This document shows positions 16,448 to 19,311 of a stretch of 64,000 bases of DNA, in pieces. Position numbers and translations under genes: made by a program. Under the pieces are notes generated by a model. It had not been told where the DNA came from and ran no database searches. It worked only from the letters and a program-made list of their open reading frames with translations. Every line of letters begins with the position of its first letter. The first letter of the stretch is position 1. Source of the DNA: Perkinsus olseni (taxonomy: Eukaryota); contig JABANN010000001.1 of the NCBI GenBank assembly GCA_013115125.1, positions 124,001-188,000 on the forward strand, given 5' to 3'.

Positions 16448-19311
16448 ATGGCCACCAATAGCAATATGAAAAAGTCTGTGTCGGCATCGCTGTCGGTCCC
16501 TCCTCGCGCGAGCAAGGCCGTGAGCAGCACCAAGGCTAACTTCGATGTCCGCCTCTTGCCCATGCAGGACATCGTGGCCGCCGCCCCCACTGAGGCCCTT
16601 ATCGAGTGGTATCATCTCCTCACCTCGGAGCTCTATCAACGCCAAAGTACCTCTCGACATCTTCACGACTGGACCTACTCTCTCCAGTACGCCCTTGTTG
16701 GTCCCTCTGGTGTCGGTAAGACGAATCTCAGACTTATGTTTACTGAGAACGTCTTCCGAGTTGCCTCTTCCCGTACTACTGGTGTGGAGTTCTCTAAGAC
16801 CATCGTTGACATCGACAACGAGCGCGTGAAGCTTCAGATGTGGGACACTGTTTGGGGCAAGTACACTGGCTCTTACTGTCACGGTGCTGCTGTCATCTTC
16901 TTCGTCTACGATGTCAGTAGACGTGAGTCTTATGATGAGCTGCTCAAGTTCCTCAAGGATACTCTTCCCACGCTCGACAGGACCATCACCAAGGTCTTGA
17001 TCGGTAACAAGGCTGATCTGCTCGGTCGCGAAGTTTCCGCCGAGGAAGCTGCTAGCTTCGCTCGTGAGAACGGCCTTCTCTTCATGGAGACCTCTGCCAA
17101 GACCGGACAAAACGTCAGGGACTGCTTCTTCAACTCAGCCAGACAGGTCCTTCTCCAGCTCCAGATGGGTATGATCGACCCCAGCTCCGCAAAGGGTATA
17201 CGCTCTGCTGCACGCAACAGCGATCATGTTACCACGGTCACTGAGCGCGGCAGTAATCTACTTCGCAACTCCGTTGTCAACAAGGCCGAAGCTTTCACCG
17301 ATAGTGAGCGTGAGGAGCTTGGTTTGGTCGGTTTGCTTCCTCCCAAGGTCTCGGATCTCGACGTGCAGTCCAAACGGTGCTATCAGCAGTTCTTGCAAAA
17401 CTCCAACGATATTGAAAAGTACATCTACTTGGAGAGTCTGCATGACAGGAACGAGACGCTGTACTTCAAGCTTCTTTGCGACCATGTTACTGAGATGATG
17501 CCGATCGTCTATACCCCTGTGGTTGGCAAGGCTTGCCAGATGTTCGGTCATATTTTCCGTAATGCTCGTGGTCTCTACTTTAACCTCTCAGAGAAAGGTA
17601 ACTTCAAGCAGATGGTGTGGAACAGCCCAGTTCGTGATGCCGATATCATCGTGGTCACTGATGGTTCCCGTATCCTAGGTCTCGGCGATCTTGGCACCAA
17701 CGGTATGGGTATCCCTATTGGTAAGCTGTCATTGTACGTGGCCTGTGCTGGTATCAACCCCGGCCGTACTGTGCCTGTCACCATTGATGTCGGTACCAAC
17801 AATCCGGATCTTCTCAATGATGATATGTATCTTGGTGAGCGTCACAAGAGAGTCGATGGTGAAGAGTTCTACGCCGCTGTGGACGAATTCGTCGATGCCG
17901 TCAAGTCTCGCTGGCCCGGTGTCCTCATCCAATTCGAGGATTTCACTAACGATCACGCCTTCCCTCTCCTCAAGCGTTATCAGGAGAACATTTTGTGCTT
18001 CAACGATGATATCCAGGGCACTGGCTCCGTTGCTCTTGCCGGTCTCGTCAGCGCTATGAAGGTGAAGAAGGAGAAGCTGGAGGACCAGAGAATCGTGTTC
18101 CTCGGTGCTGGCGCTGCTGCTGTTGGTATTGCTGACTGCATTGTTGCTGCTATGATACACGATGGCCTTACTCCTGAGGATGCGAGGAAGCGCTTCTGGT
18201 TCGTCGATTCCAAGGGTTTGGTCACCTGGAAGCGTGGTGGAAAGATTCAGGATCATAAGGTAACTAGGAGACTGGAATCTGGATGGCCGGCTCAGTTCGC
18301 TTTGATCTTTGAGAATGATTGGGTAGTCATCGTCGTTACGATCAGGTGCCTTATTGCCGTGACGACGAGGAGCCAATGACCGGCCTTCTCGAAGTCGTCA
18401 AGTCCATCAAGCCTACTGTATTGCTTGGTCTTAGTGGACAGTCAGGCTCGTTTACCGAGGAGATCGTCAAGGTAGGATAAGGACTGCCCCTTTTGTGTTG
18501 GTTCTTATCATGTTCTCTCTCAGGCTATGTGTGTCAACTGCCCTGAGCCTGTCATCTTCGCTCTGTCTAACCCCACACCCAAGGCTGAGGCTACACCCGA
18601 GCAGCTTTACACGTAGGCCTACAGCCGCATCGTGGGATATTCTGGTTATGATGGTCGTCACTTTCAGATGGACTGAAGGCAAGGCTTGGGTCTGCACTGG
18701 TTCTCCCTTCGGACCCGTCACTGTCAACGGCAAGGTCTATCAAGCGGGACAAGGCAACAACATGTAATTCACTTAGTAGTCTTGCTCGTCGGTCTTGGCG
18801 CACTTCGCGTTACTCAGGTACATCTTCCCCGGTGTTGGCTTGGCCGGTATTGTCGGCAAGTTCAAGTGGATTCCCGACTCTATGTTCTACACTGCTGCGA
18901 GGACCCTCGCCGAGAGAGTCACCGATGAGGATATCTCGCATGGCACTTTGTATCCTCGTCTTACTCGTATCCGCGAGCTCTCTCACGACATCGCTGTGGA
19001 GTGCATCAAGGAGGCCTTCGAGTTGGGCATCGCTTGCATTGAGTAAGTCTCCTGACTGACACCTCCCTCGTGTTCCTGCATGGGTCTTCTTTCTTAGGCG
19101 CCCCGCGGACCTCGATGAATTCGTCTGGGACCACATGTGGAAGCCGGAGTACTCTCATACCGAGCTTGACCCCTCTGTCCTCGCCTTCTCCGGCCAGGGT
19201 TCCGGTGTTGGTCGCAGCCAGGACAAGAACAAGCTTAGTGTCGGCACCATCCAGAACAAGGCCTTCTCCTTTACCGATATGGAGCGCGTGAACCCCAATC
19301 AGTTTATGTAG
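16448..19311 (+). CDS. Rab2-like small GTPase domain fused to NAD(P)-dependent malic enzyme, copy 1
   Basis: Exon 1 (16448-18259) encodes [35 protein letters not shown] and then, with no stop or intron, malic-enzyme motifs NKAEAFT..ERxxLGLxGLLPP, [45 protein letters not shown]. Later exons give LLGLSG, IFALSNP, GQGNNMYIFPG. Confidence 0.93.

Follow-up and report, generated by a model that had tools for sequence, protein, structure and literature searches.

What can a Rab-derived G domain do for a metabolic enzyme once the elements that sense and hydrolyse GTP are gone from it? The question is raised by a 64,000-nucleotide stretch of Perkinsus olseni DNA (assembly GCA_013115125.1, contig JABANN010000001.1, positions 124,001 to 188,000 of the forward strand; hereafter the window, whose own numbering is used throughout). 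Two genes lie there in tandem on the + strand. From N- to C-terminus, the product of each comprises a conserved helix, a G domain of Rab type, a linker and an entire malic enzyme (ME). In both of them the G3 motif, at the start of switch II, reads WDTVWGK where Rabs read WDTAGQE. We give a probability of roughly 0.55 to the reading in which this domain is a nucleotide-occupied, hydrolysis-impaired pseudoGTPase with a crippled switch II, acting in cis on the ME.

Do the two parts form one protein? In copy 1, a single uninterrupted exon of 604 codons (16448-18259) encodes both the G domain and the N-terminal domain of ME, and the linker between them, of about 25 amino acids (aa), reaches the first residues of the enzyme. 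The genomic open reading frames (ORFs), one from 16448 (643 codons) and one at about 19627-21963, each contain the Pfam domain PF00071 followed by PF00390 and PF03949; the two products are 73% identical over 601 aa. RNA-labelled contigs show the predicted introns as GT..AG joints in 11 of 11 cases in run X2 and in 10 of 11 in run X14. The passage from the G domain into ME is spanned by a single X2 contig in either gene (record 6, 16669-17659, for copy 1; record 8, 19735-20904, for copy 2). One X2 contig carries an 11-letter loose end just before 16423, and its letters fall inside PmaSL1, the spliced leader of P. marinus, in the form given by the available text of PMC3101222. Contigs of copy 2 begin at 19735 or 19736, just past its ATG, with no tail reported. 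Both parts are expressed as one spliced mRNA; an additional internal trans-splice site between the Rab-like part and ME may exist.

That the fusion is an artefact of assembly or annotation, or that the Rab-like part is a decaying remnant outside the working enzyme, could be read from the P. marinus model P0015 and several partial models, all of which come without the Rab part. This explanation is already contradicted, and we give it almost no credence. The shared exon, the spliced RNA contigs crossing the junction in both copies and the presence of the same architecture twice in tandem and in three species show that each gene encodes one polypeptide and that the fusion is real; the spliced-leader tail upstream of the first ATG and ratios of nonsynonymous to synonymous differences (pN/pS) far below 1 speak against an artefact or a remnant as well.

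What kind of G domain is it? Both copies match the Pfam Ras family PF00071 well above its curated cut-off of 21.6 bits, with 125.7 bits (E 1.7e-36) for copy 1 and 122 bits (E 2.3e-35) for copy 2. The closest solved relatives in HMMER searches are Rab14 (PDB 4drz, E 1.2e-39), Rab2B (2a5j, 2.2e-39) and Rab2A (1z0a, 1.2e-37), then Rab4; with this group (2a5j, 1z0a, 4drz, 2bme; E 1e-39 to 1e-35) the domain shares about 40% identity and the elements G1, switch I TxGVEF (in copy 1), KLQ(I/M)W, YxxGA, NKAD and SAK. For comparison with a broader set we used a 125-row MAFFT alignment of five Perkinsus sequences, 119 listed near-length matches and one longer Rab-like protein. AlphaFold2 (AF2), supplied with this alignment, models the G domain with a mean predicted local distance difference test score (pLDDT) of 83, above 90 in the core and 85-90 in the switch II region, where it places a short loop and a 6-residue helix; the N-terminal helix is modelled at residues 29-49 with pLDDT 65-75. 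Foldseek searches with this model return Rab11, Rab4, Rab8, Rab2 and Rab14, with template modelling (TM) scores normalised to the target of 0.85-0.92 (0.88-0.92 for the Rab2/Rab14/Rab4 group) and root-mean-square deviations of 1.5-2.9, pointing to a predicted Ras-superfamily small GTPase fold, with its six-stranded sheet and five helices. For the N-terminal extension no known family was found, the best Atlas score of 0.78 lying within the range of shuffled proteins.

What a G domain needs to hold its nucleotide is in place. The initial annotation had assigned positions 16688-17110, in copy 1, to a domain with G1, NKAD and SAK intact around a remodelled G3, had noted the same arrangement in copy 2, and had seen there, near 20020, a change of switch I from TTGVEF to TDCVDF. 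A motif scan locates every one of these elements (Table 1), and the span indeed runs from G1 to G5 of copy 1. All residues that normally contact the nucleotide or Mg are kept: in copy 1 numbering, K91 and T92 of the P-loop, T110 of switch I, D133, N187-K188-x-D190 and S216-A-K218. In Ras-family proteins these positions hold the phosphates, Mg and the guanine base. Columns invariant in all 125 aligned rows include G85, G90, K91, T110, W132, D133, T134, N187, K188, D190 and S216. Since every contacting residue is kept, we reasonably infer that guanine-nucleotide binding is retained. On the opposite strand, a 241-aa open frame (16385-17110, - strand) covers the Rab-like domain in full in antisense direction and, rather than being a gene, most likely represents a shadow ORF of the coding strand.

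Among the G motifs, the loss is confined to G3 and switch II. At the DxxG glycine, present in 119 of the 120 other rows of the MAFFT alignment, all five Perkinsus rows enter a four-column gap; the column that follows holds Q in 75 of the other rows, L in 43, K in one and a gap in one, and is succeeded by E and then R or S. The three printed HMMER alignments each have four gap positions in the query at switch II, placed after WDTV against Rab2B (2a5j) and the Rab14 chain 4d0g, whereas the engineered Rab14 4drz has them divided into one and three. In both aligners the Trp of WDTVWGK stands opposite the Y/F of the Rab switch II motif (ER-Y/F-R). The 120 near-length matches listed comprise 74 sequences with DTAGQ, 43 with DTAGL (Rab25-type), one with DTAGK, one that is apparently truncated and one with VWGK, the last being Perkinsus fragment P0178.

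It had been proposed that the glycine becomes a tryptophan. In linear register this is so, with Trp at D+3, but both aligners show a deletion and not a substitution; judging from them, the event is better described as a clean four-codon deletion of G-Q-E-(R/S), accompanied by an A-to-V exchange and by new sequence where helix 2 starts. The other parts of the same proposal, namely the absence of the DxxG glycine, the disappearance of the catalytic Gln and the shortening of switch II by four residues, stand in HMMER and MAFFT alignments alike. None of the five Perkinsus sequences has a canonical Rab G3, in which the DxxG Gly and the catalytic Gln are both present. Neither do they resemble HAS-GTPases, which carry a hydrophobic residue in place of the catalytic Gln: there the DxxG Gly is kept and Gln alone replaced, whereas the Gly column is gapped in five of five Perkinsus rows. 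A cryptic mini-intron at the motif was considered and rejected, as the sole GT..AG there spans 12 nt and the RNA contigs follow the genome through it without a break.

The segment is not the only Rab attribute missing. Using the Rab family motifs RabF1-RabF5 as we take them to be defined by Pereira-Leal and Seabra, RabF1 is kept in copy 1 (TGVEF) and altered in copy 2 (DCVDF; its P. chesapeaki orthologue has TDCVEF), RabF2 (KLQ(M/I)W) and RabF5 (FVYD) are kept, RabF4 is partly kept (YC(H/R)G) and RabF3 is lost (WGK(Y/F)T). At the C-terminus, two columns that hold Cys in at least 90% of the alignment have gaps in the Perkinsus query: the G domain runs on into ME instead of ending on a prenylatable Cys, and the proteins themselves terminate in ...NQFM or ...LMPF. 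The Perkinsus domain thus differs from Rab2, Rab14 and Rab4 in lacking G-Q-E-(R/S), the prenylation Cys and the switch II Rab motif, presumably RabF3, and in having an N-terminal helical extension and a covalent fusion to an enzyme. Without the lipid anchor and the switch II motif, work with Rab regulators on membranes seems unlikely.

Is the remodelled domain maintained? All five Perkinsus sequences, in which three species are represented by copy 1 and two by copy 2, read WDTVWGK(Y/F)T(G/S/A)SYC, so that the conservation of VWGK in orthologues, which had been set as a check, is borne out. P. chesapeaki possesses both copies under adjacent accessions on one 161-kb contig (P0008 of copy 1 type, P0002 of copy 2 type), and a P. 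marinus-like entry, P0017, is of copy 1 type. G-domain identity amounts to 87-91% between orthologues and 73-78% between copies; by this comparison the duplication, and the G3 deletion before it, predate the split of these Perkinsus species. Gene conversion does not account for the motif common to both copies, third-position identity in the G domain being only 0.35-0.55.

Selection was gauged by Nei-Gojobori counts between the paralogues. For the G domain (aa 79-240) they give a pN of 0.164 against a saturated pS of 0.79, which yields only an upper bound on omega; the corresponding values are 0.158 and 0.639 for the ME part and 0.123 and 0.687 for the N-terminal extension (aa 30-78). Purifying selection thus constrains the G domain to the same degree as the enzyme, in agreement with the earlier suggestion of selection and not decay.

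These figures bear on one alternative, a nucleotide-free module for protein interaction or localisation that would tether ME to a partner or an organelle, in the manner of class i pseudoGTPases such as AAGAB. Such pseudoGTPases with a normal fold are documented in the available text of PMC12490416, the Rab membrane anchor is gone from the Perkinsus domain, and switch I of copy 2 is changed in addition to G3. The cases documented in that same text, however, are without conserved G motifs (PMC12490416), while here five of five sequences strictly keep G1, G4 and G5 along with the Asp of G3 and the Thr of switch I, despite saturated synonymous sites between the paralogues, which is hard to explain without a bound nucleotide. 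We regard a nucleotide-free module as very unlikely.

Known pseudoGTPases share with the Perkinsus domain a GTPase fold and degenerate catalytic motifs, as far as the available texts on EhRabX10, EhRabX3, the AAGAB pseudoGTPase domain (psGD) and the p190RhoGAP domains describe them. In Entamoeba EhRabX10, the available text of PMC8514894 gives a non-canonical G3, DTQDME, together with the loss of G2, G4 and G5, with four G motifs lost in all; for the AAGAB psGD, that of PMC12490416 gives absent G motifs and no bound nucleotide. In contrast to EhRabX10 and AAGAB, the Perkinsus domain is altered in G3/switch II only (in copy 2 also at the switch I Gly) and is part of a metabolic enzyme.

A guide to the effect of the lesion may be H-Ras G60A, which likewise lacks the DxxG glycine: according to the available text of PMC4867591 it still holds nucleotide, rests mostly in the inactive 'state 1' and has a drastically impaired intrinsic GTPase. 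It differs in being a point mutant made in the laboratory, in which switch II has its full length and Gln61 is retained, whereas the Perkinsus change is a natural four-residue deletion kept by selection. Because both Gly and Gln are lost, and in view of the behaviour of H-Ras G60A, we infer that GTP hydrolysis is lost or impaired.

The pseudoGTPase reading is favoured because a complete nucleotide pocket under strong selection is combined with the loss of the elements that sense the gamma-phosphate and support hydrolysis. Judged by sequence and predicted fold alone, the domain is indeed a GTPase fold with catalytic residues missing. The Rab-derived domain would hold a guanine nucleotide and Mg through its P-loop, switch I Thr, G3 Asp, NKxD and SAK. 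Having lost the gamma-phosphate-sensing Gly of DxxG, the catalytic Gln, four residues of switch II and the lipid-anchor Cys, it would no longer cycle as a membrane-traffic Rab. Instead, it may act in cis, either by sensing guanine nucleotide (GTP or GDP) through switch I alone or by serving, at the N-terminal domain of ME, as a fixed module for assembly or regulation.

Several points weigh against this reading. GTPases without the catalytic Gln, such as HAS-GTPases and Rap, can still hydrolyse GTP by other means, and Rab25 naturally has Leu at this position, as do the 43 listed matches with DTAGL; loss of Gln alone is no proof of inactivity. WDTVWG can also be read as DxxxG, with a Gly shifted by one that might still reach the gamma-phosphate. 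The invariance of a seven-residue motif is weak evidence by itself, given that 112 of the 162 G-domain positions (69%) are invariant over the five sequences and the chance of such a run is about 0.07. P. marinus model P0015 (579 aa) has a copy 1-like ME preceded not by a Rab part but by 57 unrelated residues that include 'VWGK'; either its first exon has been modelled wrongly or an ME that truly has no G domain exists. Finally, the full-length AF2 model carries no information on domain packing: ME is modelled at pLDDT above 95 (aa 261-810) and the Rab part below 50, with only five informative rows. An interface prediction between the Rab-like and ME parts scored 0.00 in a run without supplied alignments and was counted neither for nor against.

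Part of these objections could be turned into a positive proposal, that of a still-active, non-canonical GTPase. Nucleotide-dependent dimerisation within the ME oligomer would bring in a catalytic residue in trans, or the Lys of WGK would serve as one, and the resulting cycle would gate assembly or activity. Malic enzymes are dimers or tetramers, and G proteins can be activated by dimerisation. All motifs that bind nucleotide and Mg are kept along with the switch I Thr, natural Rabs without Gln exist, and the new WGK, invariant in five of five sequences, fits a gained function more than mere loss. Set against this are a switch II four residues shorter and a DxxG position that carries Gly in none of the five Perkinsus sequences, when even the exchange of Gly60 for Ala in H-Ras drastically impairs the GTPase (PMC4867591, available text). 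We consider an active GTPase rather unlikely.

A related scheme has the nucleotide itself gate the enzyme. Juxtaposed by the ME dimer or tetramer, the Rab-derived domains would take up GTP or GDP, and their remodelled switch II and conserved N-terminal helix would let them associate in pairs or come apart, thereby setting the oligomeric state and activity of ME. This guanine-nucleotide-gated ME seems quite unlikely to us.

Table 1 Features of the two Rab-malic enzyme fusion genes in the window (positions in window numbering; aa, amino acids; CDS, coding sequence).
Feature	Position	Strand	Basis or remark
Copy 1, spliced-leader trans-splicing AG acceptor of the mRNA, ~23 nt 5' of ATG	16423-16424	+	One contig, one run (X2)
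Copy 1, gene, 853 aa, 6 exons	CDS 16448-19311	+	Spliced translation vs P0009 (Perkinsus olseni 'Malic enzyme'): 848/853 identical
Copy 1, introns	18260-18345, 18472-18523, 18613-18667, 18764-18817, 19043-19097	+	5/5 as GT..AG joints in RNA-labelled contigs
Copy 1, conserved N-terminal extension (aa 30-78), predicted helical	16535-16681	+	Paralogue pN and pS (see text); AF2 helix
Copy 1, Rab-like G domain (aa 79-240)	16682-17167	+	PF00071; AF2; Foldseek
Copy 1, G1 GPSGVGKT	16700-16723	+	Motif scan
Copy 1, switch I TTGVEF	16775-16792	+	Motif scan
Copy 1, remodelled G3 / switch II start WDTVWGK	16841-16861	+	HMMER and MAFFT alignments, motif scan
Copy 1, G4 NKAD	17006-17017	+	Motif scan
Copy 1, G5 SAK	17093-17101	+	Motif scan
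Copy 1, ME part (aa 266-853, 5 introns), including C-terminal tail of ~50 aa	17243-19311	+	PF00390, PF03949; ME2 match; AF2
Copy 2, gene, 842 aa, 7 exons	CDS 19732-22562	+	vs P. chesapeaki P0002: 752/843 residues identical
Copy 2, introns	21505-21555, 21679-21725, 21815-21863, 21960-22007, 22120-22171, 22285-22339	+	6/6 GT..AG joints, runs X2 and X14
Copy 2, Rab-like G domain (aa 66-227)	19927-20412	+	PF00071
Copy 2, G1 GPPGVGKT	19945-19968	+	Motif scan
Copy 2, switch I TDCVDF	20020-20037	+	Motif scan; Thr kept, nearly invariant Rab Gly changed to Cys
Copy 2, remodelled G3 WDTVWGK	20086-20106	+	Motif scan; 21 nt identical to those of copy 1
Copy 2, G4 NKAD	20251-20262	+	Motif scan
Copy 2, G5 SAK	20338-20346	+	Motif scan

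Whatever the G domain does, the enzyme attached to it looks complete. Both ME domains are present (PF00390, with E 1e-70 in copy 1, and PF03949), and the match of the ME part to mature human ME2 (PDB 9ayi, 1efk; E 1.3e-104) begins at the very N-terminus of the human enzyme. All 17 columns invariant among 108 MEs are kept, including K426, E497, D521 and the G553/G555 region, as are the nearly invariant Y355 and D498. By sequence and model, the ME is probably catalytically intact and of NAD(P) type.

Two further observations concern this part of the genes. Both copies end in a conserved tail past the ME fold (19150-19311 and 22400-22562), whose sequence close to the C-terminus is ...K(A/S)FSF(T/S)D(M/I)ERVNPN...; P. 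chesapeaki and P. marinus have the tail as well, and AF2 models it at a pLDDT below 50. In the active-site region of ME lies a gene-conversion tract, at about 17648-17827 in copy 1 and 20893-21072 in copy 2, where some 60 codons are 100% identical in nucleotides (windows at aa 421-460), with flanks at 97% and 83-88% and 65-75% elsewhere. The tract inflates the apparent conservation of the ME part and not that of the Rab-like part.

How far does the architecture extend, and where did its G domain come from? When P0002 was compared exhaustively by phmmer with 1.84 billion representatives, the Perkinsus cluster alone among the best 150 matched both parts, the other 149 matching the ME part only; apart from Perkinsus, none of these best MEs has a Ras-family domain. 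Ten long N-terminal extensions of other MEs were scanned and none of the ten contains a Ras-family domain; one has a thioredoxin. The named closest ME relatives are those of Chara and Mesostigma, whose N-termini resemble targeting or low-complexity sequence and have no Pfam match besides the ME domains. Four loci in JGI metagenome contigs comprise three canonical WDTAGQER Rabs (36-38% identity) and one relative at 29%, and no further orthologue of the Perkinsus fusion turned up in these contigs.

As to origin, the earlier reference to Rab2 proves too specific, and Rab2 is not established as the ancestor. In a tree of 25 of the 125 alignment rows, the Perkinsus clade has 100/100 support and is not assigned to any one of the Rab2, Rab4 and Rab11 rows, with a warning of long-branch attraction issued by the tool; the E-value ranking in the PDB runs Rab14, then Rab2, Rab4 and Rab11. 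The clade has a long stem (1.16 changes per column) and short internal branches, a shape compatible with rapid change that came with the fusion or later and then gave way to constraint.

Elsewhere in the window, an ORF upstream of copy 1 (14409-14903, - strand) has a weak match to RRM_1 (E 1e-4, first 32 profile positions only) and is probably one exon of a gene for an RNA-binding protein. Five other ORFs of 245-399 aa have no Pfam match.

G domains that are fused in cis to an enzyme and regulate or service it are known from ROCO proteins such as LRRK2 (Roc-COR-kinase) and from IcmF (G-protein chaperone-mutase). They differ from the present case in the family of the G domain (Roc and SIMIBI-class MeaB, respectively), in the enzyme and in keeping a working G3. 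PseudoGTPases, pseudoRabs and enzyme-fused G domains are already known, then; what is new is their combination, a Rab-derived domain with G3/switch II excised, fused to ME and duplicated in tandem, which by our sequence searches is so far confined to Perkinsus. Public records name these proteins only 'malic enzyme', and no description of a Rab-malic enzyme architecture was found among the papers listed on Perkinsus ME, ME-GTPase fusions or Perkinsus Rabs, subscription journals and supplements lying outside the search.

Metabolic enzymes seldom carry a fused small GTPase domain, and the one described here represents a new use of the Rab domain. It is also a natural experiment on what a G domain does with half of its switch when its binding elements are kept under strong selection. 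Were the domain a structural appendage only, it would be a tidy example of pseudoenzyme evolution, of local interest. If it senses GTP or GDP for the enzyme, it would represent a new way to regulate malic enzyme; and should the gated enzyme prove true, a small-GTPase module would have been re-used as a built-in metabolic sensor and not as a membrane-traffic switch. In either case, it is a lineage-specific feature of a parasite of farmed clams and oysters, with no counterpart elsewhere in the libraries searched.

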